From a virus: DNA of 64,000 nt. Position 1 is the first letter of the stretch. Each line of letters opens with the position of its first letter. The position numbers were made by a program, and so were the translations under genes. Below the pieces are notes generated by a model. It made no database searches and was not told the DNA's origin. It saw only the letters and a program-made list of their open reading frames with translations. The stretch covers positions 23,551 to 87,550 of the IMG/VR virus record IMGVR_UViG_3300028025_003977; one strand, 5' to 3'. Below are positions 18,673 through 59,298 of the stretch, in pieces.

Positions 18673-19047
18673 ATGTCTGCAGACAAAATTATTCATTCAT
18701 TTAAAACTCCTCTTAGAACTTCAAGTATTACAAGCCAAGAGCCTTTTAAAATTCTAAGCTTTGAAAGTCCTGGCGTTGTTATAAATGATGCATCAGGTCT
18801 TACAAATAGTTTATCTATTAGTTCAAATAATTCAGGATACTATCTAACAAATAACGGACTTACTGTTGAATGGAAACAGCCTACATGGTTAGATATATCC
18901 TCAGCCAGCTCAACTATAGTTAGTGCTGTTGATAAAGCTAATTCAATAAATACTCTTGTTTCTGCATTTAGAAGAACAACAATTTCTCAGAGAGCACCAC
19001 TTAGTACAGATGGACTAGATGGTGATATTTGGTTCGTGTATCAATAA
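18673..19047 (+). CDS. Small tail fibre-associated protein
   Basis: 124 aa ending in DGLDGDIWFVYQ, a common phage fibre C-terminal motif. Confidence 0.6.
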   Translation: MSADKIIHSFKTPLRTSSITSQEPFKILSFESPGVVINDASGLTNSLSISSNNSGYYLTNNGLTVEWKQPTWLDISSASSTIVSAVDKANSINTLVSAFRRTTISQRAPLSTDGLDGDIWFVYQ

Positions 19048-21101
19048 TGGCTGGATACATTGGAGTAAAAGATAAATGGACTCCCATTTCAACAGGATAC
19101 ACAAAAATAAATGGTGAGTGGAAGCAAGTAAAGTCTGCCTATGCAAAAGTAAATGGACAATGGAAAGAAGTATTTTCTCCAGCATTAAATACAATTCAAA
19201 ACTTTAAAATTAAAAGCAAAACTGCAGATGAGGTAGTACTTGAATGGGATCCAAATGCTACAGCAGAAACATATTCAGTATTTGTATCTGAAACCCCGCA
19301 AGGAACATATTTAGATCCAGTAGTAACTCAACAAACAAATGATTTTCAGTTCTTATCGTCTCAAAACAAAGTTACTTTAACTGGAACTGGAACAATAGCA
19401 CTAAACATCTTGTCTCCAATTGTAACAGGAACAGGAACAAGTTTTACTTCACAGATAGTTGTAGATGAAATATTGTTTGCAACTATTGGCGGAACTTCCA
19501 CATATATTGGAAAAGTAAAATCTATTGAAAGTAATACAAAACTTACACTATATACGGACTGGAGTTTTGCAAACGCATCTGGACTATCTTTTATTATTTA
19601 TAAAAAGAATACAAAAACTATATCAACTAACAGAGAAGCAAACTATAAGTTTTTTGTAAACTCTCTTGATGCATCAAATAATCCAGGAATATCATCTTCT
19701 CAATTAACAAGATCAACTCCAATTAGAGTTCCAGATCCACCAGCATTAACTGTTAAGTTTAAAAATGAAACAGCAGGAACAATAACAATTGCATGGACAA
19801 AAGATAGAAGAGCAACCTCATATGATATTTATAGAAATAGAACAGGGTCTTTTGTTTTACATGCCAATGTTACTCCAAGCGGAGGAATGGAAGAAACCTA
19901 CACACCATTGCCTGACTCATCAGGATTAGATTATGCCTACTATGTTGTAGCAAAAAATAATATTTTAACTGTAGCACCAGATAACGATCCAGCAACGGAA
20001 CAACAATCTGAACCATCAAATTCTATAAATTTCGTATCTACTCCGCCAACCCTTGGAAACATATCTTTAAAGGGTGTATCTGTAGACCATAACAGCGTTA
20101 AGTTGCAGTGGACAGACGTTGCAAATGCAGATAGATACTTTATTCAAATTTCTGGAGGAACATACGGAACTTTTAGTGATGATATATCAATAGCAACAAC
20201 AACTATAGCGGATGCAAATAGAATTGAGTATACTGTAAATCTTGCAGATCAAACTGATTATAATATTAGAATTAGAGCAAGAGGTGCTGCTGGAACAATT
20301 TATGAAGCATCAAGTGCCTACTCAAATGAAATTTCAGTTTCAACAGGAAGGGCAGCAGAAACTGGAAAAAGATGGGTGGCACAAACAGATAAAAATTATA
20401 CTTCTACTGAATCCACAAGACTTAGAACTACTGTATCATATTACGATCCGTATGATAGAAGAACATTTGCAACTGAAAGTTATAGCACATATTCAACTAC
20501 TAAAGCTGGTGTAGGAATAGTTGTTACAACTGCAAACGTAACTAAAAGTAGAATTATTCAGGTATGGCAACCAGGAAGACCAGGGTATTGGATAACAGTT
20601 CCTGGATACTGGACCAACACAAGACCTAGAAGATGGGTTCCTCCAAGAAGAGAATGGATTCCTGGAACGCCTGGAAGGTATGTAGCAGAAAGAGTAGACT
20701 ACAGTGTAGTAGAAACAACTACTAAACAATATTTTGGTATATTCTATACTCCAATTACAAGCTCAACAGATCTTCCAGCAGCTGCAAGACTTGATGCTGC
20801 AACTTTTAGGTTTTATAAAGATACTTCTACTTCAAAAGGTATAACTATCCACATTGGAACTACAGACCCAAGTTTAACTTATTTCTTTAATACTACAACA
20901 GTTGCTGGGGCTGGAACAAAAAGCTTTGTTTCTACAGCCTATTATAATTACTTAAAACTATCAAATGTAAACTCTGTAATTTTTACTGGAACAGGAGCGG
21001 TTGCAAACTTTGATGATGGAAGATTGATTGTTGAATGGTCTCTTGAGGAAGCGTATACAATAACAAGTGCCATAGCAATGAGTATAACTGGAAATAAATA
21101 G
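19047..21101 (+). CDS. FN3-like repeat virion protein with a W/P/G-rich insert
   Basis: N-terminal YxKxNGxWK repeats. FN3-like motifs (VVLEWD..A.TYSV, ITIAW...ATSYDIY, VKLQW...ADRYFIQ). WxPGxPG segment near the C-terminus. Confidence 0.7.
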   Translation: MAGYIGVKDKWTPISTGYTKINGEWKQVKSAYAKVNGQWKEVFSPALNTIQNFKIKSKTADEVVLEWDPNATAETYSVFVSETPQGTYLDPVVTQQTNDFQFLSSQNKVTLTGTGTIALNILSPIVTGTGTSFTSQIVVDEILFATIGGTSTYIGKVKSIESNTKLTLYTDWSFANASGLSFIIYKKNTKTISTNREANYKFFVNSLDASNNPGISSSQLTRSTPIRVPDPPALTVKFKNETAGTITIAWTKDRRATSYDIYRNRTGSFVLHANVTPSGGMEETYTPLPDSSGLDYAYYVVAKNNILTVAPDNDPATEQQSEPSNSINFVSTPPTLGNISLKGVSVDHNSVKLQWTDVANADRYFIQISGGTYGTFSDDISIATTTIADANRIEYTVNLADQTDYNIRIRARGAAGTIYEASSAYSNEISVSTGRAAETGKRWVAQTDKNYTSTESTRLRTTVSYYDPYDRRTFATESYSTYSTTKAGVGIVVTTANVTKSRIIQVWQPGRPGYWITVPGYWTNTRPRRWVPPRREWIPGTPGRYVAERVDYSVVETTTKQYFGIFYTPITSSTDLPAAARLDAATFRFYKDTSTSKGITIHIGTTDPSLTYFFNTTTVAGAGTKSFVSTAYYNYLKLSNVNSVIFTGTGAVANFDDGRLIVEWSLEEAYTITSAIAMSITGNK

Positions 21102-23339: not shown

Positions 23340-23629
23340 TGGCTAGACATAAAAAAATAAAAATGACAGAACTAGAAAAGTTTATTGGTTCTGAGCTTTC
23401 AGAAGATACTGCATTGATTGGTGCAGCAGAAACATTAGCACAGGCATCAAAAATTGCAACAAAAAAGAAAGATGTAGACTCTTTAATTAATGCAGTTGAA
23501 GGTTGGCTAACACTTTCTAGATTTCTTTCGGAAGAAAAGGATTTTGACAAATCGTCAAGATATGGTATGATTGGTTTTACAAGTAGCCAGGGAGACAGTA
23601 ATGAGTCAAAAGGAAACAACAACGGTTAG
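23318..23629 (+). CDS. Hypothetical protein
   Basis: ORF in a co-oriented operon; true start may be 23339 or 23363. Confidence 0.55.
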   Translation: MESRGVLVARHKKIKMTELEKFIGSELSEDTALIGAAETLAQASKIATKKKDVDSLINAVEGWLTLSRFLSEEKDFDKSSRYGMIGFTSSQGDSNESKGNNNG

Positions 23630-40782: not shown

Positions 40783-41172
40783 ATGGGTTCACCAATCGTG
40801 GGAGGTAAGGTTACAACACCTTACAAGAAGCTTGGAAAGATGTGGAGCAAGGGCTATCACACAGGAGTAGACTACGCTTGCAAAGAAGGAACAGACATTG
40901 TTGCTGTTGCTGACGGTAAGATTGAAAATGCATCTTGGGGTGCCAGCTATGGCACACAGTTAGTTCAAAAAGTTGAGGGTGGATGGGTAATCTATGCACA
41001 CCTTTCAAAGGCTCTAGTAAAGCCAGGAGACAAAGTAAAGAAGGGTCAGCATATTGGAGAGTCTGGTAATACAGGCAACTCTTCAGGTCCCCACCTTCAC
41101 TTTGAAATGAGAGACAACATTAGATGGAGTGCAGGTAAGGACATTGATCCTGCTGCAATTCTTGCATCTTAA
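40783..41172 (+). CDS. Stand-alone M23 peptidase (candidate endolysin)
   Basis: HTGVD, YAHL, GPHLHFE; no signal peptide or binding domain. Confidence 0.88.
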   Translation: MGSPIVGGKVTTPYKKLGKMWSKGYHTGVDYACKEGTDIVAVADGKIENASWGASYGTQLVQKVEGGWVIYAHLSKALVKPGDKVKKGQHIGESGNTGNSSGPHLHFEMRDNIRWSAGKDIDPAAILAS

Positions 41173-41643: not shown

Positions 41644-41937
41644 ATGAATCTAGTAGAATTTATTGAAGAAGTTAAGTCAGGTCAGACCCTTGTGGATTTC
41701 TGGGCTGAATGGTGTGGACCATGCAAGATGCTAACACCTGTAATTGAAGAACTATCTAAAGAGCAGGATGTTCGTTTGCTAAAGATTAATGTTGATGAAA
41801 GTCCAGAGCTTGCACAAGCACTTGGCATCAATAGCATTCCAGTTATTATGCTATACAATAGTGGAGAAAAACTAAAGCATATTGTTGGTGCTAAGCCAAA
41901 GCCAGCACTAAAGAAAGCGTTGTTTGATAATGTTTAA
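41644..41937 (+). CDS. trxA: Thioredoxin
   Basis: VDFWAEWCGPCK...INSIP. Confidence 0.95.
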   Translation: MNLVEFIEEVKSGQTLVDFWAEWCGPCKMLTPVIEELSKEQDVRLLKINVDESPELAQALGINSIPVIMLYNSGEKLKHIVGAKPKPALKKALFDNV

Positions 41938-42505: not shown

Positions 42506-45500
42506 ATGGCATCCAAGAAATTTTTAAACCCTATAAACCTGCTAAATTTAGCATCTGACCCTGCCAGTGCCACCGAAGGTGATATTTATTTTAACACCAC
42601 CGATGATGTTGTAAAGGTATATGCCAATGGTGCTTGGGTAGCAGTTGGTGCCAATCCTACACAAGAAGATATTCAAGACCTTGTTGCCCCATTATTTACA
42701 CACTCTAATCACATCAATGCTTCTGTAACTTATGAAGACGCATCTAATGAACTACATATCGATGTAATTAGTGCTCCATCTGCTGGATATACTGGCACAG
42801 TAAAACATGATGTTAGATTAAACGGAAGCATTGCAACGGGTCAAGCAGTTTATGTAAGTTCTTCAAATGGAACAAATATGATTGTTTCAAAAGCCTCAAA
42901 CGCATCTGAAGCAACATCTAGCAAAACTCTTGGTCTTTTAGAGTCTGGTGGAACAAACAATGCATTAGTTAAAGTTGTAACAGAAGGTCTCTTGGCAGGT
43001 CTTAATACATCCACCGCAGGTACAGAGGGTGATCCAGTATGGCTTGGCACCGATGGAAATTTAATTTATGGTCTTGCAAACAAACCTGTTCCTCCTGCAC
43101 ACTTAGTTTTTATTGGTATTGTTACCAGAAAAAATGAAAACAATGGTGAGATCTTTGTTAAAGTACAGAACGGCTTTGAGCTAAAAGAAATTCATGATGT
43201 ACTTCTTGAAGCTAATGAGTCAATAGCAGATAATGAAATCCTCTCTTATGATAGTGCAAGTGGTCTTTGGAAAAATCAAACTCCAGCAGAAGCAGGGCTT
43301 CAAGTAATTGTTTCTGGCGTATCAGATACTGAAATCGGATATCTTGACGGAGTTACAAGTGCTATTCAAACACAGATAAACAATAAAGCATCTTTATCTG
43401 GTGCTACATTTACTGGAGAAATTGAAGCCACTAAACTTAAGGCTACTGCAGCTGGTGGAGACGAGGGTGGAGAAATACTTCTTGGAAAACCATCCACAAA
43501 TACAACCCTTGCTGGCATAGGCGTTACTGTAGATGTTTACCAAAATAGACTTAGATTTTTTGAACAAGGTGGAGATGCTCGTGGATACTACATTGACATT
43601 ACTAATGGTGGATCAGCTGCGTCAACAAACCTAGTTAGTGCTGGTGGATCAAGCAATCTTGACGGTCTTACAGACGTAACAATTAGCGGAACCATAGCAG
43701 ACAATGAAGTTCTTGCATATGACACTGCAACTTCTCAGTGGATTAATCAAACTACAACAGAAGCAGGGCTTGCTAAAACCACAGACCTTGATTCATACCA
43801 GCCACTAGATGCAGATTTATCAGCAATTGGTGCACTTACTGGAACTTCTGGACTTTTAAAAAAGGAATCAGCTAACAACTGGTCACTTGACACAAATACT
43901 TATATTACATCATCTGCACTTAATGGTTATGCGTTACTAACTGATCCAGAGTTTCTTGGAACACCTCTTGCTCCAACCGTTACTGCTGGAGATAATAGTA
44001 CAAAAATTGCTACAACAGCGTTTGTTGCTACAAGTTTTGCTCCGATTAATGCACCAACATTTACTGGCACAGTAGTTCTTCCATCTACAACTTCCATAGG
44101 AGATGCATCCTCTACTGAAATTAGCTACTTGAATGGCGTGACTTCTTCAATCCAAACACAATTAAATAGCAAGCCTGACCTTACTTCTGGCGTTCTTAGC
44201 GAATCTGTAATCCCGATAGAAATTGCAAGAGTTAGCGATATGTCAAACTCTACAACTGGCTATGTTCCTATAAATACAAAAGGACAGCCTGACGGTGTAG
44301 CAACACTTGATGGAAGTGGAAAAGTTCCAAGTACACAATTAGATCAATTCGTTGTTGCCTTTTTAGCAGGACCAACATTTACTGGTACAGTAATTCTTCC
44401 GTCAACAACAAGTATTGGAACAGTTACTTCAACAGAAATTGGATACTTAGACGGAGTAACATCTGCACTTCAGACACAGATTGACAACAAGCTTTCAACA
44501 TCATTAGCTGTATCAAACTACTTAAGTAAGGCAGATGCAATATCAGACTATCAGCCAAAAGATTTAGATCTTACAAATATTTCTGCATTGTCAACAACTG
44601 GAATTGTTGTTCGTGGAGTAGACTCAACATACACTACAGTAACTAATAATTCTTCTAATTGGGATACTGCATACACTGATAGAAATAAATGGGATGGTGG
44701 ATCAACAGGTCTCAATGCATCATCTGGAAGAACATCTTTAGGTCTTGTAATTGGAACAGATGTTCAAGCTTACAGTTCACATCTTGCAGGAATTAATACT
44801 CTTGGTTCTGGTACTGGTCTTTTAAAAAATACAGCAGGAACATGGTCTTACGACACAAGTACATATGCATTAGCATCTTCTTTGTCTGGCTACCAGCCAC
44901 TTGACGGAGACCTTACAGCAATCTCTGCAATTACTTCAGGTGTTGGATTATTAAAAAGACTTGGACCAGATACATGGTCTATTGATACAAGTTCTTATAT
45001 AACTGGCTCTTCTCCAACAATTAGTACCTCTTTAATATCTGGAACAAGTACCTTTAATTTAATAAATGCTACTGCAACAACAGTAAATTTTGCAGGTGCT
45101 GCGACAACATTAATAATTGGAGCAACAGATGCAGGGGCAACAACAACTATTAGAACCCCAACAATACTTACAACAAGCTCAAACCTAGATTTATTTAATA
45201 CAACCGCAACCACTGTTAACTTTGCAGGTGCAGCAACAACATTTACAATTGGAGGAACTCCAACAGGATCTGTTACTGCAACTTTATTTGGAAATGCTAC
45301 CACAACAACAAAAACAATTAATATCGGAACTGGTGGAGCATCAGGTTCAGAAACAAATATTAATATTGGTTCTTCAACAAGTGGGGCAACTGGAACAGTT
45401 TCTGTTTACCCTTCTACAAATTTTGTTGGTTCAGTTTCTGTTCCGACACCAACATCCTCTAATCATGCAGCACCGAAAAGCTATGTTGATGCACTAGCAG

Positions 45501-46501
45501 CTGGTGTAGTAGTAAAAGCTCAAGTAGTCTATACTTCTTCTACTAATTTAAATGCAACCTATGCAAATGGAACTAGTGATTCTTCTGGTGGTCTTGGTGT
45601 TGGAGCAACCCTTACTGGAAACGTAGACGGAGCACTAATCCTTGATGGACCAGAAGTAGAAGCTGGTCAAAGAGTTCTTATTAAAAATCAAACCGATGCA
45701 AAGCATAACGGTATATATGTTGTAACTTTTGCTGGAGATGGTGACGATCCATTTATTTTGACAAGAGCAACCGACTTTAATGGTAACTCTTCAACTAACG
45801 GTATAGTTAAAAACGCAAACTATGTTTTTGTTACCTCTGGAACCAACTCTGCAAATGACTCTTATGTAGTTTCTCTTGCAGGAACATCAACATCCCCAAG
45901 CGGTGCAATTAAATTTGGAACAGACAATGTTTCTTTTGCACAGTACTCTGGTGTACCAAATAACATCAGCACACTTGGATATGTTACAACAGGAACTTGG
46001 GCAGCAACCCCAATTGATAAAGACTTTATTGATGTTGAAATAGCCAGAACAAACGATCCAGTATTTACTGGTCATGTTACAGTTCCGTCCCCTACAGATG
46101 ATACTGATGCAGCAAACAAAGAATATGTAGATGATTTAATTTTTGCCAGTTTGCCATACCTTCCAGACATTATTCCACTGGATGACTTGAGGTATGAGTT
46201 TAACGACATAGATTCTAGATTTGTTCCAAAATTCCAAGGAGAACAGGTAGCAATTAATAACCCACTTAGACTTTTGTTAACAATAAATGGTATAATTCAA
46301 ACAGTGGACTTTCCAGAATATGTCTGGCAATCTATGCTACCAAGAGAAGGCTTTATGGTAGACTCAGATGGCTACATTGCATTTTCTGAAGTACCACCAG
46401 CAGGATCAACATTTGATGCCAGGTTAATGCTTGGACCAAACGTAAATTCAATAAAGAAAGGGTATCCATTCAAAGCGGTGGATATATTATTAGGAGCATA
46501 A
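42506..46501 (+). CDS. Mosaic repeat tail fibre protein, module B gene 1
   Basis: 3x TEIxYLxGVTSxxQTQ, 3x YQPxDxDLxxI, 2x ADNExLxYD...W.NQT..EAGL, 2x ATTVNFAGAATT. C-terminus homologous to 11183..15013. Confidence 0.8.
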   Translation: MASKKFLNPINLLNLASDPASATEGDIYFNTTDDVVKVYANGAWVAVGANPTQEDIQDLVAPLFTHSNHINASVTYEDASNELHIDVISAPSAGYTGTVKHDVRLNGSIATGQAVYVSSSNGTNMIVSKASNASEATSSKTLGLLESGGTNNALVKVVTEGLLAGLNTSTAGTEGDPVWLGTDGNLIYGLANKPVPPAHLVFIGIVTRKNENNGEIFVKVQNGFELKEIHDVLLEANESIADNEILSYDSASGLWKNQTPAEAGLQVIVSGVSDTEIGYLDGVTSAIQTQINNKASLSGATFTGEIEATKLKATAAGGDEGGEILLGKPSTNTTLAGIGVTVDVYQNRLRFFEQGGDARGYYIDITNGGSAASTNLVSAGGSSNLDGLTDVTISGTIADNEVLAYDTATSQWINQTTTEAGLAKTTDLDSYQPLDADLSAIGALTGTSGLLKKESANNWSLDTNTYITSSALNGYALLTDPEFLGTPLAPTVTAGDNSTKIATTAFVATSFAPINAPTFTGTVVLPSTTSIGDASSTEISYLNGVTSSIQTQLNSKPDLTSGVLSESVIPIEIARVSDMSNSTTGYVPINTKGQPDGVATLDGSGKVPSTQLDQFVVAFLAGPTFTGTVILPSTTSIGTVTSTEIGYLDGVTSALQTQIDNKLSTSLAVSNYLSKADAISDYQPKDLDLTNISALSTTGIVVRGVDSTYTTVTNNSSNWDTAYTDRNKWDGGSTGLNASSGRTSLGLVIGTDVQAYSSHLAGINTLGSGTGLLKNTAGTWSYDTSTYALASSLSGYQPLDGDLTAISAITSGVGLLKRLGPDTWSIDTSSYITGSSPTISTSLISGTSTFNLINATATTVNFAGAATTLIIGATDAGATTTIRTPTILTTSSNLDLFNTTATTVNFAGAATTFTIGGTPTGSVTATLFGNATTTTKTINIGTGGASGSETNINIGSSTSGATGTVSVYPSTNFVGSVSVPTPTSSNHAAPKSYVDALAAGVVVKAQVVYTSSTNLNATYANGTSDSSGGLGVGATLTGNVDGALILDGPEVEAGQRVLIKNQTDAKHNGIYVVTFAGDGDDPFILTRATDFNGNSSTNGIVKNANYVFVTSGTNSANDSYVVSLAGTSTSPSGAIKFGTDNVSFAQYSGVPNNISTLGYVTTGTWAATPIDKDFIDVEIARTNDPVFTGHVTVPSPTDDTDAANKEYVDDLIFASLPYLPDIIPLDDLRYEFNDIDSRFVPKFQGEQVAINNPLRLLLTINGIIQTVDFPEYVWQSMLPREGFMVDSDGYIAFSEVPPAGSTFDARLMLGPNVNSIKKGYPFKAVDILLGA

Positions 46502-46504
46502 ACA

Positions 46505-49441
46505 ATGGCTAGAAAAGTACTTCACGAGACGAATTATACATTCACTCCGTCAACAAGAACGATTGTAATCCCAGATCACATTCCAAGGGAGAGACTGGTA
46601 TTAATTACAAACGTAACTACTAACCAGGTTATCTACAACTTCTCTGACCCTAGTCTTAAAGCAACAAGCTACACACCAGCCATTGATTCAAACAACGTAG
46701 CCACAACTACTATTGTATTAAACTACAATACTGCAGCAATGTCTGCTACAGATAAACTTCAAATCACAGTTGATGAATATGCTGAAAGCTTCCAGCCAGA
46801 TGAAGCCTATATGGATCCAGTTGGAAAATTTAGAGTTTCCAACCCTACCTCTTTGATTGATACCGATTTTGAATACGGAACTCAGCCTACTAAATGGGAA
46901 GTATTAAGTCTTACAAATAATAAGCCATCTTGTTTTTATGATATTCAAACTCCAATTGCTCAGCCTTCTGGAGGAACAAATACATTTGTTTCAATTACAG
47001 GAACTGGATCATCTAGACTGGTAACTGTAGTAACTACGGCAGCCCACGGTCTTTCTGTTGGGGATAAGTTCTTTATTCAAGATACACTAGACGTTAATGC
47101 AGATGGATGGTATTTAGTCAGAAGCGTTTCAACAACAACAGTTTCTAATGACACCTTTACATATTATGCAAGAGCAAATGTTGCTAACGGATCAGTTCGT
47201 GATGCAACAAAAACTTTTGCCTACAAAGCTTTTAACTACACAGGATCTGAAATTCCTATTTCAGTTAGCTCTGGTGCTGCATTTACGGCATCTAGCACCA
47301 CAGTAACAGCAACAACAACACATGCTCATGGTCTTAGTGTTGGAGATTTAATTTATGTTAATGGCACAACAGCTGCCTCTTCTAATCCACCAAATGGTGC
47401 ATGGGAAGTAAAGACAACTCCAACAACAAACACATTCACTTTTGATGTTATTGATGCTCCATCTGGTGCAATTACAGCAACTGCAAAATCTTTAACTGGA
47501 AGACCAGGATCCCTTTCTGTTCACAGACCTTTTGACGGTGGAGTTAAGTTTACAACTGGATCTTCTGCCCCTGGTTCAAAGATCGTAAGACAGACAAGAA
47601 GATACTTTAGATACCAGTCAGGTAAAGGCATTCAGTTCTCTACTGGATCTATGCTAAAGCCAGTATTTTCAGTTGATCTTATCACAAGTTCCAGTACAAC
47701 AGTTACCGTTAAAACTAGATACGAACATTTCCTTGGAATTGGTGCACAGGTTACAGTAACTGGTGCAGATCAAACAGCATACAATGGAACTTTTGTGGTT
47801 ACGGCAATTACTGGACCTAAAGAATTCCAATACACCGCATCTTCAGTTCCTTCAGCAACTCCAGCAACTGGGTTCCCTATCACGGTAGCACCAGTCGCTT
47901 GGTTTGGTGGTCAGACAAGAGTAGGAATGTTTGATGAACAAAACGGATTCTTCTTTGAGTTTGATGGACAAACACTATGGGCAGTAAGACGCTCTAGTAC
48001 AGATCAAATTTCTGGAATTGTTGCAACAACTCAAGGTTCTCCAACAATCACTGGTACAGATACTAGATTCTCAGAACAACTAAATCCAGGAGACAAGATT
48101 GCTATTAGAGGTTTAACCTATACTGTTCAATCAATCACAAGTAATACAGAATTGTATGTGTTCCCAGAATATCGTGGTCAGTCAATTGCTTCTGGTGGAA
48201 TTGTAAGCAAGGTGGTTGACTTTAAGGTTCCACAGTCCTCTTGGAATATTGATAAGTTAGATGGCACAGGACCTTCAGGAGTAAATGTAGATCTATCTAA
48301 AATGCAAATGTTCTATCTTGACTATGCATGGTATGGTGCAGGTGCAATTAGGTTTGGATTTAAAGACGAGCGTGGAGAAGTTGTATACTGTCACAGAATG
48401 ACACATGCAAATGTTAAGTCAGAGGCATACATGCGTTCTGGAAACCTTCCTGCCCGATACGAAGCAGCAGCAGATGCACCAGTTACAAAGCTTTCAGCAT
48501 CACTTTCTGACTCTGCTACCAGTATGTCGGTTGCTAGTACTGTAGGATTTCCTTCAACTGGAACTCTGTCTATTACAAAGGCTGGAAATACTGCACAAGA
48601 AATTGAATATGTTTCTTACACAGGAAAAACAGCAACAACTTTTACTGGTTTGACCAGAGCTCTTACAAATGTAATTGTTAATCCAGTTACTGGTGCTACT
48701 GGTGGAGGTAATGCAACTGCTCAATCATTTACTTATTCAGCAACTGCTCCAGTAAGAGTTGACCTGTACTCTAGACAGTATGCAACTGGAACAAGTCACT
48801 GGGGATCATCTGTAATTATGGATGGTGGATACGATGATGACAAGTCTTTCGTATTCCAAGCAGGTATGAAAACTGGTGTAGTTGTTCCAAGAAGCACAAC
48901 ATCAAGATCTGCTCTAATTAGTCTAAGACTTGCTCCATCGGTAGACAATGGAGTAGTTGGAGTCCTTGGAGAAAGAGAACTTGTTAATAGAATGCAGTTA
49001 AGACTAAGACAAATGGATGTTTTAACCTTAGTTGCAGGTTCTCTTGGAAACCCAGGAGCATTCCTTGTAGAACTTATATTAAATCCAAGATTTAATACTG
49101 CAACTGGAAATACTTGGGAAAATGTTGGTGGATCAAGCTTGTCTCAAGTTTGCTATCACGCAACAAATACAACCCTAATTGGTGGAGAGCCAATCTTCTC
49201 CTTCTTTGTATCTACTCAGTCTGGTGAAGCAAACGTTGTGCAACAAGATCTTGGTTTGGTTAGAGATTTAGGAAACTCAATTCTTGGTGGAGGAACAACA
49301 AATACTGGTCAAACAACTGAGTTGAATATCTTCCCAGATGGACCAGACATTGTAACAATAGCAATCAGAAACCTTTCTGGTTCTGGTGTAACGAGTGCTA
49401 CAGTTAACGGAAGGCTTTCTTGGACTGAAGCCCAAGCATAG
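46505..49441 (+). CDS. Tail fibre/structural protein, module B gene 2 (paralog of 15025..18663)
   Basis: Collinear motif conservation with 15025..18663 from N- to C-terminus (WTESQA vs WTEAQA). Confidence 0.78.
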   Translation: MARKVLHETNYTFTPSTRTIVIPDHIPRERLVLITNVTTNQVIYNFSDPSLKATSYTPAIDSNNVATTTIVLNYNTAAMSATDKLQITVDEYAESFQPDEAYMDPVGKFRVSNPTSLIDTDFEYGTQPTKWEVLSLTNNKPSCFYDIQTPIAQPSGGTNTFVSITGTGSSRLVTVVTTAAHGLSVGDKFFIQDTLDVNADGWYLVRSVSTTTVSNDTFTYYARANVANGSVRDATKTFAYKAFNYTGSEIPISVSSGAAFTASSTTVTATTTHAHGLSVGDLIYVNGTTAASSNPPNGAWEVKTTPTTNTFTFDVIDAPSGAITATAKSLTGRPGSLSVHRPFDGGVKFTTGSSAPGSKIVRQTRRYFRYQSGKGIQFSTGSMLKPVFSVDLITSSSTTVTVKTRYEHFLGIGAQVTVTGADQTAYNGTFVVTAITGPKEFQYTASSVPSATPATGFPITVAPVAWFGGQTRVGMFDEQNGFFFEFDGQTLWAVRRSSTDQISGIVATTQGSPTITGTDTRFSEQLNPGDKIAIRGLTYTVQSITSNTELYVFPEYRGQSIASGGIVSKVVDFKVPQSSWNIDKLDGTGPSGVNVDLSKMQMFYLDYAWYGAGAIRFGFKDERGEVVYCHRMTHANVKSEAYMRSGNLPARYEAAADAPVTKLSASLSDSATSMSVASTVGFPSTGTLSITKAGNTAQEIEYVSYTGKTATTFTGLTRALTNVIVNPVTGATGGGNATAQSFTYSATAPVRVDLYSRQYATGTSHWGSSVIMDGGYDDDKSFVFQAGMKTGVVVPRSTTSRSALISLRLAPSVDNGVVGVLGERELVNRMQLRLRQMDVLTLVAGSLGNPGAFLVELILNPRFNTATGNTWENVGGSSLSQVCYHATNTTLIGGEPIFSFFVSTQSGEANVVQQDLGLVRDLGNSILGGGTTNTGQTTELNIFPDGPDIVTIAIRNLSGSGVTSATVNGRLSWTEAQA

Positions 49442-49453
49442 TGGGAGGAAAAC

Positions 49454-50131
49454 GTGGGACTTAACAAACTAAACCACCTTTACTCTACTGAGCCATTGAC
49501 AGTAGATTCTTTACTAGCTAACAATGACGTAACCGTATTAGATGACGTTAATGTATTTGGAGAAACCCTTGTTGATGGATTGCTTGGGCAGCCAAACCAA
49601 GTACTTAAAGTCAATTCTGCTGGAACTACAATTGAATGGGCTACCCTAGATGCTCTTCCATCACAGTCTTCAAATGCAGGAAAATACCTAACAACTAATG
49701 GAACTACTGCTTCATGGGCAACAATTACACTAAGTAACTATGCACTTTTAAATGCCCCATCTTTTACTGGAACAGTATATTCTGCTGGAAATGTTGTCTC
49801 ACATATTGATACAAATGCTCCAACTTTAAATTCTGGCAATTCCTATAAATATACGTTAGTTTTGGCAGATGACGGTAAGATGATTGAAATGAATACCTCT
49901 ACTGGAGTAGGAAACACTCTTGAAATCCCCTTAAATTCATCCCACGCCTTTCCAATCGGTACTCAGATATCAGTACTTCAAACTGGTGCTGGACAAACAA
50001 CTATCTCTGGAGCAGTTGGTGTGACCGTAAACGCTACTCCTGGAGCTAAACTAAGAGCACAATGGTCTGCTGCAAGCTTAGTAAAAAGAGCCACCAATAC
50101 TTGGGCTTTAATTGGAGATTTGACGGCATAA
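49454..50131 (+). CDS. Tail fibre-associated protein
   Basis: GQPNQVLKVNSAG and NAGKYLTTNGT fibre motifs. C-terminal FPIGTQISVLQTGAGQ...LRAQWSAASLVKR..NTWALIGDL domain. Confidence 0.72.
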   Translation: MGLNKLNHLYSTEPLTVDSLLANNDVTVLDDVNVFGETLVDGLLGQPNQVLKVNSAGTTIEWATLDALPSQSSNAGKYLTTNGTTASWATITLSNYALLNAPSFTGTVYSAGNVVSHIDTNAPTLNSGNSYKYTLVLADDGKMIEMNTSTGVGNTLEIPLNSSHAFPIGTQISVLQTGAGQTTISGAVGVTVNATPGAKLRAQWSAASLVKRATNTWALIGDLTA

Positions 50132-50134
50132 ATT

Positions 50135-51421
50135 ATGTTTTTATTTAAAAATCTCTCAACAATTGCATCTTCTGTTCGTAATATGTTTACTGATAATTTT
50201 AACAGACCTGATTCAGGAGAATTAGGAGATGCAACAGATCAGAGTAGATGGACAGCCCTTCGTGGAGTATTTACTATTTTTGAAAATAAAGCCAGAACAA
50301 CTTCTGCAGCCAGTACATACCCAATTGCCTCTATTACAATGCCAGATTCTCCTCTTGATCAAGATGTAGTTATTTCATTAAAGGGAACAACTCCTGGAAC
50401 TGGTGCAGCCCTTTGGATTACAGATAACAATAACTGGTGGGCTGTAACAACTGGTAAAGAAGTGGGAGAAAATTGTAACTGTGATACATGTTCTACATGT
50501 AATGCTGGAAATTGTAATGCTGGACCATGTACAACAAATGGAAACTGTATTGCTGGACCATGTAATGCTCAAGGAAATGCTTTTGGAAACTTTACTGCTG
50601 GAAACGTAAACGCATTTACTGGAAACAATCAAAACGCAGCAAGTGGAGGAAACGTAAACGCATTTACTGGAAACAATGCTAGATATTTTTGTAATGCTTG
50701 GAACTTTGGAAACTGCAATACTACTAACTCAGCATGTTCACAGCTAGGTGAACCAGTTCAAACTGGTGGAGGAAACTGTAGAGTTTGGAGAAGCCCCATT
50801 CCAAGATACTGTATTGGCTGGAACACTAGAAACTTTTCTCGTCCTTGTGTTGCATACAGTTGCGACACAGTAGGAAATAGATTTTGTAGGGCATCAAGCA
50901 TTACAAGCTACAACGCAGCAACTGGTGGAGGAAATACAAATACATTTTTCCCTGCAACTTGGAATGCAGCAACTGGTGGAGGAAACTTTAATGGAAACAC
51001 CTTTACCGTAACTGGATGGAACTGTGCTGGAACTTTTTGCTCTGGAACCTATAACTGTGCAGCATATACATGTACTGCTTGGACATGCACAAATACTACA
51101 TTTTCTAGTTGTAATTGTCAAACCTGCTTTCCAACATATGTTAGGGTTATAAAGTCTGTTGCAGGAACTGTTTCAGAATTAACTAGGTGGGTGGTTTCTA
51201 CCCTTGGAACACAATTAGTTAACTCTATGAGAATTACTACTAGTGGATCTCAAATAACAATTGAGCCATATGCAAATGCGGATCTTACATCAAAAATTGG
51301 AAGTGACCTAGTTTACACACCAACTGGTGTTGCACTTTCATCCAGCTATGGTATAATTGTAGAACCATCTCCTACAAGCCAAGGATTTGAAATTGATGAA
51401 ATTACAATTGAAAAAATTTAA
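50135..51421 (+). CDS. Beta-sandwich protein carrying a 218-aa, 24-Cys mirror-symmetric insert
   Basis: FTDNFNR N-terminus and YVRVIK...MRITT..QITI C-terminus resemble the two halves of a ConA-like sandwich. Residues 114-331 are Cys/Asn/Gly/Ala/Thr-rich. Confidence 0.8.
   Translation: MFLFKNLSTIASSVRNMFTDNFNRPDSGELGDATDQSRWTALRGVFTIFENKARTTSAASTYPIASITMPDSPLDQDVVISLKGTTPGTGAALWITDNNNWWAVTTGKEVGENCNCDTCSTCNAGNCNAGPCTTNGNCIAGPCNAQGNAFGNFTAGNVNAFTGNNQNAASGGNVNAFTGNNARYFCNAWNFGNCNTTNSACSQLGEPVQTGGGNCRVWRSPIPRYCIGWNTRNFSRPCVAYSCDTVGNRFCRASSITSYNAATGGGNTNTFFPATWNAATGGGNFNGNTFTVTGWNCAGTFCSGTYNCAAYTCTAWTCTNTTFSSCNCQTCFPTYVRVIKSVAGTVSELTRWVVSTLGTQLVNSMRITTSGSQITIEPYANADLTSKIGSDLVYTPTGVALSSSYGIIVEPSPTSQGFEIDEITIEKI
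50600..50677 (+). repeat. Exact 30-bp direct repeat (48-bp period)
   Basis: GGAAACGTAAACGCATTTACTGGAAACAAT at 50600-50629 and 50648-50677. Confidence 0.9.
50915..50985 (+). repeat. Exact 20-bp direct repeat (51-bp period)
   Basis: GCAGCAACTGGTGGAGGAAA at 50915-50934 and 50966-50985. Confidence 0.88.
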
Positions 51422-51431
51422 AGGATAAAAT

Positions 51432-51710
51432 ATGAGTGACAAAAAAGAAAATACAGAAGACGTTCCTGAGCTTAGAGTTCCACCTAATCCAGGACCAGAA
51501 AGATTGCCATTTGATATAGCCATGGTAATTAACAATTGTGTTTATCAGGTTTTAAATGTTGATGGCGACCATGCAGCACAGCTTTTGTCTCAACCAACTT
51601 ATATTAGGTTTAAAAACGAAGAAGCTAAGCTTGGATGGAAGTACGATCCAGAAACAAAAACATTTTCAAGACCGATTTACGATTCAGAAACTGATACGTT
51701 TCACTACTAG
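51432..51710 (+). CDS. Small GWKY-motif protein A (possible fibre assembly factor)
   Basis: IAMVINNCVYQV...AAQLLSQP...GWKYD; paralogous to 52413..52913. Confidence 0.7.
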   Translation: MSDKKENTEDVPELRVPPNPGPERLPFDIAMVINNCVYQVLNVDGDHAAQLLSQPTYIRFKNEEAKLGWKYDPETKTFSRPIYDSETDTFHY

Positions 51711-51723
51711 AAAGCATTAAAAA

Positions 51724-52413
51724 ATGAAGCTTATACAATTTACATGTGAGGATAAAACATATCCATTAAACGTTCCTATTCCTGCAAAAAAAATGATCCC
51801 ACAGTGGTATAAGGATGGAGAAACATACTACATTGACAAGCACAGTAATGATAGTGGTGCTGGGCTAAAAACATGCATACCATTTTTAGATGTTTTAACT
51901 GCTGGATATCTTTTAGTTACCCCCTTTGACATATTTGTTGGTAAAAAAGAAGACGGTTCCTTGAGTATTGAATGGAACTCTCCAGATCCTTGGCAAAATT
52001 TTGTAAACCAAAGACCTTATGAGTCTGGAGCAACTATTCCAAGACCTTCAGGTCATCTAGATGCTCATTTTGTTTGGTCAAATAAATGGGGATGGAAAAC
52101 TCCTAGAGGATATAGTACAATTGTTACACACCCATTCAACAGGTTTGATCTTCCCTTTACTACAATGTCTGGATTTATGGACACTGATAAGATTTCAGTA
52201 AATGGAAACGTTCCTTTCTTTTTAAAAGAAGGATTTTATGGAGTTATTCCAGAAGGAACTCCATATGCACAAATTATTCCAGTAAAAAGAAAGTTTTGGA
52301 AAATGATTAATAACCCTGCAAACATTGATTTGGTATCAATGCAAAGTGTTAAGATACACTCAGAAAAAGCTTATTATAAGAAAAAAGCTTGGATAAGAAA
52401 AGAGTATAACTAA
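51724..52413 (+). CDS. DUF6065-like protein
   Basis: PIPAKKMIPQWYK, KTCIPFLD.LTAGY, W.WKTPRGYS...HP.N..LPF...SG..DTD, GTP..Q.IP.KR..W. Confidence 0.68.
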   Translation: MKLIQFTCEDKTYPLNVPIPAKKMIPQWYKDGETYYIDKHSNDSGAGLKTCIPFLDVLTAGYLLVTPFDIFVGKKEDGSLSIEWNSPDPWQNFVNQRPYESGATIPRPSGHLDAHFVWSNKWGWKTPRGYSTIVTHPFNRFDLPFTTMSGFMDTDKISVNGNVPFFLKEGFYGVIPEGTPYAQIIPVKRKFWKMINNPANIDLVSMQSVKIHSEKAYYKKKAWIRKEYN

Positions 52414-52913
52414 TGTCTAAACATAAAAATGGAGTAATTGTCTTAAGCACATTGGACATTATTAAGGGTTGGTTTTCAAAAAGAAAAAGATTTGAAAACA
52501 AGCAATCTCTTTTTTATAACATGATGCCTCCCGAGCCACTTGGAGAAAAAATAATTAGTATTGCTATTGTTTTGGATGAAGAGGTTCAAGAAATTATTAG
52601 AGCACAGTCTGGGCTAGCCTCATTGTTTTTATCCAATCCTTCTTTTGTAGAAATTAGTAAAGAGTTAGATCCAGAAAGTAAGCCACAAGTTGGCTGGAAA
52701 TATATTGATGGAAGATTTTTTAAGAAGCATGTTCTTGTCAGGGAAAACGATGTTCTTTGGAGCGTTGATGGTGATCCTTGCGATGATCCAAACTGCGATC
52801 TTTGCCTTGGCGGTGGCAAATTAACAGCAACAATAAATGGAGAAAACACTCCAAGGCTTCCTGTTGTAAATAGAATAGAACCTAGTGAGGAAAAAGAAAA
52901 AAATGACGAATAA
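52413..52913 (+). CDS. GWKY-motif protein B with a C-terminal CxxxxCxxC
   Basis: IAIVLDEEVQEI...ASLFLSNP...GWKYID; PCDDPNCDLC. Confidence 0.68.
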   Translation: MSKHKNGVIVLSTLDIIKGWFSKRKRFENKQSLFYNMMPPEPLGEKIISIAIVLDEEVQEIIRAQSGLASLFLSNPSFVEISKELDPESKPQVGWKYIDGRFFKKHVLVRENDVLWSVDGDPCDDPNCDLCLGGGKLTATINGENTPRLPVVNRIEPSEEKEKNDE

Positions 52914-53562
52914 TATTGTTTTTACCAGCACGTTTCCACAATATGATATCCCACATCCAATTCCAGCAAGTAGGGCTGTTCCAGAATGGTGGAGAAAAGA
53001 ATCCACCGTAGCTGATCAGATTCATACAATGAAAAAATGTGTTCCAATTTTAGATTCTCTTACAGCAGGTTATGTCATAACACTTCCTTCTGATGTACAT
53101 AGAGCAAAGGGTATGGATAACTTTGGACAACGTTCAGATATATCTTTTGTTTCTCAGCATTATAAATTGCAAACTAAAGCCTATCCACTTTCAGAAGAAT
53201 TTGAAGATCAACCATACAAGTGGATAAATCCTTGGAAAATTACAACTCCAAAAGGATATAGTTGCTTATTTATTCACCCATTGAATTCAGGGGATATGCC
53301 GTTTCATTCTTTTTCTGGGGTAGTTGACACTGACAAGCATCCAGTTCCTGTAAACTTTCCATTTGTAGTTAAAAAAGATTTTGAAGGGGTTATCCTAGCA
53401 GGAACTCCAATTATTCAAGTTATACCATTTAAAAGAGAGTCCTGGAAAAGTAAAGTAATAGATGATAAAGAGTTTATTGAGGACAAATCTTTTTATAAGA
53501 TATTTAATCCCCCCTATGGTCAGTATAAAAGAAACTGGTGGAGTAAAAAGGAGTTTAGATAA
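52903..53562 (+). CDS. DUF6065-like protein (paralog of 51724..52413)
   Basis: PIPASRAVPEWWR, KKCVPILDSLTAGY, WKITTPKGYSC..HP.N, SGVVDTD, GTPIIQVIPFKRESW. Confidence 0.7.
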   Translation: MTNNIVFTSTFPQYDIPHPIPASRAVPEWWRKESTVADQIHTMKKCVPILDSLTAGYVITLPSDVHRAKGMDNFGQRSDISFVSQHYKLQTKAYPLSEEFEDQPYKWINPWKITTPKGYSCLFIHPLNSGDMPFHSFSGVVDTDKHPVPVNFPFVVKKDFEGVILAGTPIIQVIPFKRESWKSKVIDDKEFIEDKSFYKIFNPPYGQYKRNWWSKKEFR

Positions 53563-55246: not shown

Positions 55247-55507
55247 GTGAGCGATGATGATTTTTTAGAAGTTCCACCACTAAAGCCAGTAAGACCATGG
55301 GACTTGTTAAATCCAAATAAAGAAAAGGTTTCAGACGAAGCACAAAAAAGAAGAATGGATATATGTAAATCGTGTCCATTTTTTATTAAAATAACAGGTC
55401 AATGTAGTAAGTGTGGCTGCCTTATGGCTGGCAAAACAAAGCTTGCGGATGCTTCCTGTCCTATTAATAAGTGGGGACCAAACTCAGCAACTCTAAAGGA
55501 AGACTAA
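55247..55507 (+). CDS. Small Cys-cluster protein (DUF6171-like)
   Basis: RR..ICKSC...CSKCGC..KTKL..SCPINKW. Confidence 0.75.
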   Translation: MSDDDFLEVPPLKPVRPWDLLNPNKEKVSDEAQKRRMDICKSCPFFIKITGQCSKCGCLMAGKTKLADASCPINKWGPNSATLKED

Positions 55508-57517: not shown

Positions 57518-58420
57518 ATGAAGAAAAGTATTATTGCTATTATTGGAATAGCATTGCTTTTGGTTATTACAGGAACCTCGGCAAAAGGAAATACCAAGCC
57601 CACCATTGCTGTAATTGATACAGGAATTGACGCTACACATAGCTTAGTGTCTGGAAAAATTGTACATGAAGTATGCATTCTTGATTTTAAAGTGTGTCCA
57701 AATGGACAAGACTTTATGGAAGGTGTTGGAGCAGCAACTTTAGATCCAGTTAGAGCTAGTAGAAATGGTTTTTATCACGGAACTCAAATTGCTTCCGTAA
57801 TAACTAAAAATAATCCAAATGTTAATCTTGTTGTTATTAGAATTATTCCAATGACAGCAACTGGATTTAGAGCAAGTACGTCATTAAATACTGTACAAAA
57901 AGCATTAGAATGGGTAGACAAAAACCATCAAGCATATAATATTGTTGCAGTAAATATGAGCCAGTCATATGTTTCAAGGGATGCTTGCACGAAGCATGTT
58001 CCCATTGAAAATGCAATTAATTCTCTTGCATCAAAAAACATTCCATCATTTTTTCCAACAGGAAATGGATCTAATTATTCTAAGATAGACTTCCCTGCAT
58101 GTATTGCATCATCAATTTCTGTTGGTGCTACAGACCCAGCATATGGAAAGCAAATGTCTCCAGCAATTTATAGCAACAATTCATCCGCTACAGATTTTTT
58201 TGCACTAGGAACAATGTTTGCTGCATCTCCTAGCAACAAAACTGCCAACTCTGTTGGAACATCAAACTCCAGTGCACTTATGGCAGCAAAATGGGTAGCA
58301 GTAAAAGAACTAAATCCAAGCTTGTCAATGTCTCAAGTATATGATAGAATTAAGTCCCAATCAAGATACCTTGAACATAAGCGTTCAGGAAAAATGTTTA
58401 TTGTTGATCTAGTTAATTAG
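57518..58420 (+). CDS. Secreted subtilisin-like S8 protease
   Basis: N-terminal signal peptide; IAVIDTG (Asp), HGT (His), PTGN (oxyanion Asn), GTS (Ser). Confidence 0.9.
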   Translation: MKKSIIAIIGIALLLVITGTSAKGNTKPTIAVIDTGIDATHSLVSGKIVHEVCILDFKVCPNGQDFMEGVGAATLDPVRASRNGFYHGTQIASVITKNNPNVNLVVIRIIPMTATGFRASTSLNTVQKALEWVDKNHQAYNIVAVNMSQSYVSRDACTKHVPIENAINSLASKNIPSFFPTGNGSNYSKIDFPACIASSISVGATDPAYGKQMSPAIYSNNSSATDFFALGTMFAASPSNKTANSVGTSNSSALMAAKWVAVKELNPSLSMSQVYDRIKSQSRYLEHKRSGKMFIVDLVN

Positions 58421-58814: not shown

Positions 58815-59024
58815 ATGCCAATAATTGGTTACGAAGAAGCACACGCTATAGTAGAAAAGAATAAAAACCTTTACTGGGATGGCTGGAACATTGTAGACTG
58901 GAAAGCAGATTCTCTTGGAGAAATGTCAAAGGGTGGAATGTTAAAAGATGGCAAGTGGGGATTTTACAAGACCTACGAACCAAACGAAAACGGTTGGGAA
59001 GTACCAGTAAAATATGTTAGATGA
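58815..59024 (+). CDS. Trp-rich small hypothetical protein
   Basis: LYWDGWNIV...GKWG...GWEVP; SD AAGGA. Confidence 0.7.
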   Translation: MPIIGYEEAHAIVEKNKNLYWDGWNIVDWKADSLGEMSKGGMLKDGKWGFYKTYEPNENGWEVPVKYVR

Positions 59025-59298
59025 AGAATGGATGATGAAAGCCAAGTGTCGTGCCATTGATCGTGAAATGTTTTTTGATAAGTATGAAGAAGATCCAATA
59101 CTTGCAAAAACAGTTGATGAAACTATTTGTTTACAGTGTCCTGTTATAGCAGAGTGTTTTAATCACGGAACAACAAACTCAGAATGGGGAGTTTGGGGTG
59201 GTGTATACTTAGTAGATGGAGAACCAAGCCCTTCTAAGAACATGCATAAAACAAAAGAGGTGTGGTCTATGATCCTAGATGCGGTGTCAGATGGCTAA
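59014..59298 (+). CDS. whiB: WhiB-family transcription factor
   Basis: AKC...FF...ICLQCPVIAEC...EWGVWGG. Confidence 0.92.
   Translation: MLDEEWMMKAKCRAIDREMFFDKYEEDPILAKTVDETICLQCPVIAECFNHGTTNSEWGVWGGVYLVDGEPSPSKNMHKTKEVWSMILDAVSDG

Follow-up and report, generated by a model that had tools for sequence, protein, structure and literature searches.

The question raised by this locus is what kind of structure could be built by a viral protein in which 24 cysteines, spaced almost palindromically, are packed into a single internal segment. The window analysed (64,000 nucleotides (nt), positions 23,551 to 87,550 of the IMG/VR virus record IMGVR_UViG_3300028025_003977) contains, at 50135–51421 on the plus strand, an open reading frame (ORF) shown by translation to encode 428 amino acids (aa) plus a stop. 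This ORF, hereafter the ladder gene, is single-copy within the 92,955-bp record, a virus contig that is 87% complete. Comparison of its product with relatives strongly supports an antiparallel two-arm insert, the cysteines of which are matched arm to arm in nested order, and which is carried between two flanks predicted to form one concanavalin A (ConA)-like sandwich. The relevant parts of the gene are as follows (pLDDT, predicted local distance difference test):

50135–51421, plus strand: whole ladder gene; predicted ConA-like sandwich with an inserted, putatively cysteine-laddered hairpin
50135–50473, plus strand: residues 1–113; conserved N-terminal peptide, then the first predicted beta-sandwich half, as judged by pLDDT and by fold matches over model residues 13–428
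50474–50563, plus strand: left base ladder C114–C143 with 8 cysteines; CNCDTC knuckle, then Gly/Asn/Pro-rich rungs of 5/5/6/5 residues
50564–50689, plus strand: left cysteine-free spacer, residues 144–185; perfect 30-nt direct repeat
50690–50887, plus strand: tip domain C186–C251 with 8 cysteines, giving 4 putative nested pairs; facing 8-residue loops CNAWNFGNC and CDTVGNRFC
50780–50809, plus strand: apex RVWRSPIPRY between C215 and C226; putative basic-aromatic hairpin turn
50888–51022, plus strand: right cysteine-free spacer, residues 252–296; 96%-identical 23-nt direct repeat
51023–51127, plus strand: right ladder C297–C331 with 8 cysteines; aromatic-rich rungs (F, Y, Y, W), CNCQTC knuckle at the end
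51128–51421, plus strand: residues 332–428 plus stop; second predicted beta-sandwich half (pLDDT 88–96)

Cysteine pattern of the ladder gene

A preliminary description of the window had placed 24 cysteines in three groups of 8 within residues 114–331, and translation reproduced those positions exactly: 114, 116, 119, 122, 127, 132, 138 and 143 in the first group; 186, 194, 201, 215, 226, 238, 243 and 251 in the second; 297, 302, 308, 313, 318, 326, 328 and 331 in the third. Residues 114–331 correspond precisely to bases 50474–51127, and the flanks hold no cysteine at all. The successive gaps (2, 3, 3, 5, 5, 6, 5, 43, 8, 7, 14, 11, 12, 5, 8, 46, 5, 6, 5, 5, 8, 2, 3) are nearly palindromic, as had been remarked at the outset, with a mirror-mismatch score of 14 compared with a mean of 102 for permuted gap lists and with none of 2000 permutations equalling it (p < 0.0005). 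The remaining landmarks of that description were likewise all recovered, namely two cysteine-free spacers of 42 aa (144–185) and 45 aa (252–296), CNCxTC caps at the two ends of the insert (CNCDTC on the left, CNCQTC on the right), and the sequence RVWRSPIPRY located between C215 and C226. The cysteine pattern is consequently real and far from chance.

In composition the insert is dominated by Asn (17%), Thr (14%), Gly (13%) and Cys (11%), with His, Lys and Met absent and only three residues that are Asp or Glu; the right ladder is its best conserved stretch. Cysteine accounts for 5.6% of the ladder protein versus a mean of 0.62% for the other 40 ORFs of the window, and for 0–0.3% of the adjacent fibre proteins. 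In the window, the large structural and fibre proteins (147–21101 and 42506–50131, plus strand), which reach sizes of up to 1395 aa, contain 0–6 cysteines each, and against this nearly cysteine-free background the ladder protein stands out.

A large family of relatives

A word-indexed search recovered 120 relatives, and an exhaustive HMMER search yielded 313 clusters (50% identity), of which 185 score below E 1e-10. All members of the family, which comprises at least 313 clusters at that identity, are metagenomic; they range from about 245 to 585 aa and from 0 to 46 cysteines, the flanks being conserved throughout and the insert hugely variable. The preliminary description knew of no characterised protein of this design, and none was encountered here. 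Scans of the ladder protein against Pfam and PHROGs assigned it to no family; tblastn against 50,697 deposited phage genomes, a set from which this genome or near copies of it were possibly left out, gave no match; a profile search of PDB sequences (E up to 10) gave as its sole match a chance one to factor X light chain (E 5.8); a search of the ESM Atlas with the insert alone gave no feature match and structural rows of TM ≤0.31; and a search of the literature for a phage cystine ladder or cysteine-rich fibre hairpin found nothing relevant. A paper on tentaclin proved to be unrelated. The ladder protein and its relatives constitute a large, widespread and unannotated family of probable phage adhesins that share an unusual design.

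Joint gain and loss of cysteines

Cysteine counts are even in 211 of the 217 cysteine-bearing full-length relatives. Among representatives at 50% identity, 114 have an even and 5 an odd number (binomial p about 6e-28, uncorrected for ancestry), and each of the 5 owes its odd count to exactly one stray cysteine far outside the insert, within which the number is even in 119/119. Such evenness disfavours both thioether-type cross-links and unpaired structural cysteines; lanthionine-type thioethers were rejected on the grounds that they would not demand an even number of cysteines.

Independent loss of cysteines in each arm had been named in the preliminary description as grounds for abandoning its reading. 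Pairwise comparison of relatives at least 55% identical yielded 84 clean differences: the lost cysteines formed sets closed under nested pairing in 46 of these and under adjacent pairing in 3, the rest falling in perfectly regular repeats, where alignment cannot locate the deletion. Thus the only cysteines missing from P0004 and P0005 are C215 and C226, in place of which stand Ala and Val or Ile, respectively; P0044 has lost the third cysteine from each end relative to P0041, and P0058 the 11th and 18th relative to P0046 (28 cysteines); P0022, for its part, carries an additional pair at mirrored positions. This joint gain and loss shows a coupling of nested partners, of which a chemical bond may be the basis.

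Two arms in antiparallel register

For analysis of the arms, the kth cysteine and the (N+1−k)th were taken as partners in 211 relatives. The lengths of the two arms, which range from 3 to 183 residues, are correlated with r = 0.97, and the spacing from rung to rung on one arm tracks that on the other in mirror order (Spearman 0.72) and not in direct order (0.02). Steps of at least 14 residues are mirrored in 154 of 207 cases, the corresponding figure for direct order being 27 of 299. Mirror symmetry of the gaps was also apparent in most of the 120 relatives from the word-indexed search; the gap lists of P0051 and P0245 read 92/16/92 and 43/19/43, respectively, and in P0082 (40 cysteines) irregular 16-residue steps return at mirrored places.

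Partner positions in the window protein sum to 440 for five consecutive rungs (122/318, 127/313, 132/308, 138/302 and 143/297), to 437–441 in the tip, and to 445, 444 and 445 at the base; in P0036 a sum of 416 recurs in 10 of 15 rungs, and in P0042 a sum of 349 in five rungs. A constant sum along each stalk is what straight antiparallel pairing would be expected to give. A disulfide-braced beta-helix of the Tenebrio antifreeze type was excluded by the lack of direct-order correlation and by irregular steps that are mirrored rather than repeated, and since the ends of the insert must meet inside one sandwich, the opposite-end termini of a beta-helix would in any event be out of place; an alpha-helical hairpin was rejected as unsuited to the Gly/Asn/Thr/Pro-rich composition.

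Spacers and matched growth of the arms

The two spacers of the window gene each preserve a duplication at the DNA level. On the left, a perfect 30-nt direct repeat (50600–50629 and 50648–50677; period 16 codons) encodes GNVNAFTGNN twice, and on the right a 96%-identical 23-nt direct repeat (50912–50934 and 50963–50985; period 17 codons) encodes NAATGGGN twice. These duplications are recent. At a partner sum of 440, left copy 1 (residues 156–165) lies opposite right copy 2 (277–284) and left copy 2 (172–181) opposite right copy 1 (260–267), a disposition which implies that each arm grew by one repeat and that the repeats are facing partners. Spacer lengths among the 34 closest relatives fall into 15 distinct left/right pairs with r = 0.96. 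Together with the facing duplications, this correlation bears out the matching of indels between arms, a test proposed beforehand.

In five relatives (P0189, P0105, P0221, P0161 and P0070) cysteines are absent or limited to the base, and yet a two-arm insert of repeats is kept, the repeats being GSNYGxV-type heptads, Tyr/Asn decamers or of NPPPGGG type. Retention of two-arm repeats without the cysteines gives the latter the appearance of dispensable staples on a repeat hairpin of older origin, a design which, to judge from these relatives, would be independent of cysteine.

The flanking sandwich

An AlphaFold2 (AF2) model of the window protein, run on an 84-sequence alignment, assigned pLDDT values of >90 to residues 20–110 and of 88–96 to residues ~330–428. 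Exhaustive comparison by VIA-align gave a Z score of 15.9 to CBM66 (4b1m) and one of 15.6 to each of two mycobacteriophage proteins, a Douge baseplate chain (8zdo_a) and TM4 gp23 in its C-terminal receptor-binding domain (9n6a_A), and these three top alignments, of 149–173 aligned residues, extend from about residue 10–23 to 427–428 and so cover both flanks. Foldseek matches of the whole model against the PDB were weak (E 0.02–0.2), though all were of lectin or GH43-C type. With pLDDT at or about >90 and Z of 15.6–15.9 across both flanks, the earlier suggestion that the flanks belong to one ConA-like domain is upheld, and the model supports their assignment to a single contiguous two-sheet sandwich.

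The flanks are thus predicted to have the same two-sheet sandwich as the two actinophage receptor-binding domains and CBM66, and the TM4 and Douge domains further share with the ladder protein a phage tail context and a probable actinobacterial host. Identity to the three is nevertheless only 9–12%, and their titles and alignments show no long cysteine-rich insert.

Conservation of the tip and apex

Column entropy was averaged by region over the 34 closest relatives, among which most indels fall in the spacers:

Flanks: mean column entropy 0.46–0.68
Ladders: mean column entropy 0.64–0.86
Tip domain: mean column entropy 1.0
Spacers: mean column entropy 1.46–1.58

A hypervariable tip, as envisaged in the preliminary description, is contradicted by these values, the tip being less variable than the spacers, and by retention of the apex motif G-G-N-C-R-x-W-R...P-R...C among the same close relatives. 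Across 208 relatives, the combined share of Arg and Lys is 8.6% in the central 25 residues versus 1.7% in the arms, Trp is twice as frequent there as in the arms, and acidic residues are nearly absent. As far as sequences can tell, the family as a whole combines an uncharged stalk with an apex that is cationic and aromatic, and this hints at an anionic or glycan ligand that is itself conserved.

The 8-residue loops that face each other in the tip (CNAWNFGNC type and CxTxGNRFC type; window 50690–50887) are swapped between the arms in six relatives (P0023, P0026 and P0031–P0034). That both loops switch sides together is expected of a single pseudo-symmetric (pseudo-two-fold) unit.

Proposed structure and its alternatives

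On balance, the ladder protein is probably a distal fibre adhesin or receptor-binding accessory in which a ConA-like sandwich carries a nested stalk of 12 links ending in a basic-aromatic apex. The sandwich, of lectin/carbohydrate-binding type, would probably dock on the product of the fibre gene immediately 5' of the ladder gene. The 218-residue insert would exit and re-enter between two strands of the sandwich, running out and back as antiparallel arms in register, with residue i opposite about 440−i. The arms, made of short tandem repeats, would be tied by 12 nested Cys–Cys links, namely 114–331, 116–328, 119–326, 122–318, 127–313, 132–308, 138–302, 143–297, 186–251, 194–243, 201–238 and 215–226. 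In all likelihood these links are disulfides, formed when the particle is exposed to oxidising lake water, and the outcome would be a stiff, extended, uncharged and protease-resistant stalk. The apex (R-x-W-R...P-R), together with sides lined by aromatic residues and Asn, may make contact with host-envelope components of anionic or glycan nature, and stalk length would evolve by matched duplications and deletions of repeats in both arms.

Disulfides constitute the simplest cross-link, given that the evolutionary unit is one pair, that rungs are mostly of two cysteines, and that a metal site could draw on no His and on very few acidic residues of the insert for its completion. Virion disulfides have precedents in cyanophage Pam3, where they were shown by mass spectrometry (PMC9942802), and in phage Milano, for which they have been reported (PMC10811340).

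Several considerations weigh against this reading. The support consists of comparisons between sequences rather than measured structure or chemistry, and the parity and correlation statistics ignore shared ancestry. AF2 assigned pLDDT of only 55–77 to most of the base ladder and <50 to the spacers, and in a model of P0059 (305 aa, with 7-residue rungs) residues 115–192, nearly the whole ladder, also fell at pLDDT <50. In a flat two-stranded beta-ribbon, cross-strand disulfides recur at even spacing; the commonest rung periods here are 5, 8 and 7, the odd values of which misfit such a ribbon, and in one subfamily 7-residue steps on one arm stand opposite 9-residue steps on the other. Virions assemble in the reducing cytoplasm, so that disulfides must form late. 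Finally, neither an N-terminal anchor nor a trimerisation domain is evident in the protein, which makes its attachment to the fibre conjectural. The insert might adopt the conformation of an extended ribbon as long as about 35 nm, a bundle resembling polyproline II (PPII), or a compact two-layer stack of ~8 nm.

Of the disulfide-laddered hairpin originally proposed, what stands is the nested two-arm topology, to which even counts, mirrored spacing, matched arms and joint loss and gain all contribute, the weak point being the ladder itself as modelled by AF2. The monomer prediction suggested at that time divides in the same way: it rendered the flanks as one domain, the beta-strands of the base and tip with only moderate confidence, and the spacers unreliably.

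Three other structures are all compatible with the two-arm, nested-partner topology. In the first, three hairpins would associate into a trimeric needle, a six-stranded rod like the tip of T4 gp37, with the core cysteines engaged as inter- or intrachain disulfides or in axial metal binding. In gp37 (2XGF), each chain runs to the tip and returns. The T4 structure is a trimeric needle in which seven irons are held by His residues of three chains (PMC6957217), and it resembles the proposed stalk in being a thin distal fibre element with a receptor-binding tip and regularly spaced cross-links (PMC6957217). The location of the ladder gene within a fibre module is in keeping with a trimer, as are the poor monomer models of the ladder, which a fold dependent on partner chains would explain, and an 8-residue rung would make one face of an arm aromatic, suggesting a buried interface. 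However, where gp37 shares His-bound iron between three chains, the ladder insert deploys Cys pairs and contains no His, and hence no HxH iron-binding motif; no sequence similarity links it to gp37 or to any other solved fibre, the protein lacks an N-terminal shaft, and the unit of loss, one Cys pair per chain, fits plain intrachain disulfides. A trimeric needle is considered unlikely.

Comparably improbable is a compact two-layer repeat domain, in which folded short strands or PPII/polyglycine-II segments would be joined by cysteines between layers to give a knob of ~8 nm and not a stalk of at least 30 nm. AF2 placed strands 117–129 and 132–138 opposite 306–311 and 315–326 at the base, together with short strands in the tip, all at pLDDT 55–77; the latter suit a compact domain, but the 13-residue strand 117–129 facing 315–326 amounts to extended pairing at the base, and the constant partner sum across many rungs is that of a straight in-register ribbon. 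The arms are indeed tandem repeats of 5–12 residues with Gly/Asn turn-formers, and the cysteine-free relatives add GSNYGxV-type repeats as well as NPPPGGG-type ones reminiscent of the lattices, rich in glycine, of S16 gp38 and Pam3 gp24 (PMC9942802). The genes for those adhesins likewise adjoin a fibre gene, and their products are rich in Gly and polar/aromatic residues with short repeats (PMC9942802), although they are without a cysteine ladder, are not inserted into a ConA-like domain and gave no sequence match to the ladder protein.

Least probable of the three are metal clamps, whereby the CxC...CxxC units of the base would be tetrathiolate Zn/Fe sites and only the single Cys pairs disulfides: of 217 relatives, 133 have an insert that starts with CxC and ends with CxxC, and 85 have the complete CxCxxC...CxCxxC; this, the direct rather than mirror order of the CxC/CxxC unit, and the six CNC/CQTC units stacked in P0227 are all suggestive, but the base sums, which vary by no more than 1, fit nested disulfides equally well, most rungs have only two cysteines, and the insert offers no His and only the three acidic residues. 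The Pfam scan of the ladder protein gave no zinc-finger match.

Returning to the nested-disulfide stalk, a bolder version of it is put forward tentatively, as possible though doubtful: that this is a new architecture, a single-chain two-stranded nanorod with nested disulfides, stepped in length from 1 to 23 rungs and reaching roughly 30 nm or more, which would serve across an aquatic phage clade as a reach-adjustable probe carrying a conserved cationic tip through the outer layers of the host.

Relation to known disulfide-rich structures

Theta-defensins, tachyplesin and protegrin are free peptides of two antiparallel strands with nested parallel disulfides, comprising 2–3 rungs per 17–18 residues at a spacing of 2. 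By way of contrast, the ladder insert would have 12 rungs over 218 residues (up to 23 in relatives), 5–12 residues apart, and is located inside a folded domain. The ultralong third heavy-chain complementarity-determining region (CDR H3) of bovine antibodies is a two-stranded projection from a beta-sandwich that presents a small disulfide-rich binding knob; there the stalk is without disulfides and the knob is variable, whereas here the stalk would be longer by far, cross-linked and the most variable part, and the apex is conserved.

Genomic context and probable host

The ladder gene closes a run of large virion/fibre genes. Its neighbours of interest, with a WhiB gene further downstream, are:

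42506–46501, plus strand: virion/fibre-run gene; large protein of the module ended by the ladder gene
46505–49441, plus strand: 978-aa virion structural or fibre protein (phrog_5838, E 3e-278)
49454–50131, plus strand: upstream gene, 225 aa; C-terminal part resembles the C-termini of tail fibre/minor tail proteins (phrog_8780, phrog_16053 and phrog_18179)
51432–53562, plus strand: four downstream genes (92, 229, 166 and 225 aa); same order after the ladder gene in very distant relatives
59014–59298, plus strand: WhiB

The gene at 49454–50131 ends 4 nt before the ladder gene, and its product is a candidate docking partner for the ladder protein. In distant relatives the ladder gene is again found directly 3' of a fibre-type gene, and in one of them the gene directly upstream carries Mtd_N, a domain of the Bordetella phage tropism determinant. 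The ladder gene has the same four genes after it in every such case, conserved in order down to about 33% identity (L001:11350-13410, L003:11056-13022 and L004:11361-13215), with sizes across loci of about 72–92, 225–230, 102–166 and 219–225 aa, the two larger being paralogs in phrog_7084. The 225- and 229-aa proteins of the window gave no Pfam match at E ≤0.01, and a designation of them as 'DUF6065-like' is unconfirmed. BLASTP revealed no similarity between the ladder protein and the terminal protein of the other fibre module (19029–21101), which carries fn3.

Beyond the four genes lie a glycosyltransferase (PF11397) and methyltransferase-like genes, with DUF6065 genes in L003 and L004; an 86-aa protein with 6 cysteines (55247–55507, plus strand; DUF6171, E 1.4e-6) is encoded within the glycosyltransferase cluster that follows the ladder gene. 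A thioredoxin gene (41644–41937, plus strand; PF00085, E 1e-26) is situated about 570 nt upstream of the fibre module of the ladder gene, and a UFOVP359-like relative has a thioredoxin in the same place (L001:1360-1647); it may be tied to oxidative folding or may simply be a partner in nucleotide metabolism. A search of the virus record for an Erv1/Alr sulfhydryl oxidase gave no match, an uninformative result given that control genomes gave none either. The window also encodes an M23 peptidase (40783–41172, plus strand) and an S8 subtilase (57518–58420, plus strand).

WhiB is not known outside Actinobacteria and the phages that infect them, and the nearest named relative is an uncultured freshwater Caudovirales contig. 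On these two grounds, and despite a G+C content of 36.5% in the window, the host is probably a freshwater actinobacterium.

Implications

Host range in phages is governed chiefly by receptor-binding proteins, and the present family appears to stem from phages of abundant, mostly uncultured freshwater bacteria. Were the nested-disulfide stalk to prove correct, it would exceed by a wide margin every cystine ladder known to us, and would be a natural rigid rod of module-wise variable length, of relevance to protein design in the form of stalk-and-tip binders and nanoscale spacers. It would likewise mean that the virions mature oxidatively after release. The strict evenness of the cysteines, taken with the matched duplications in the two arms, provides a clean natural case of paired structural elements co-evolving.

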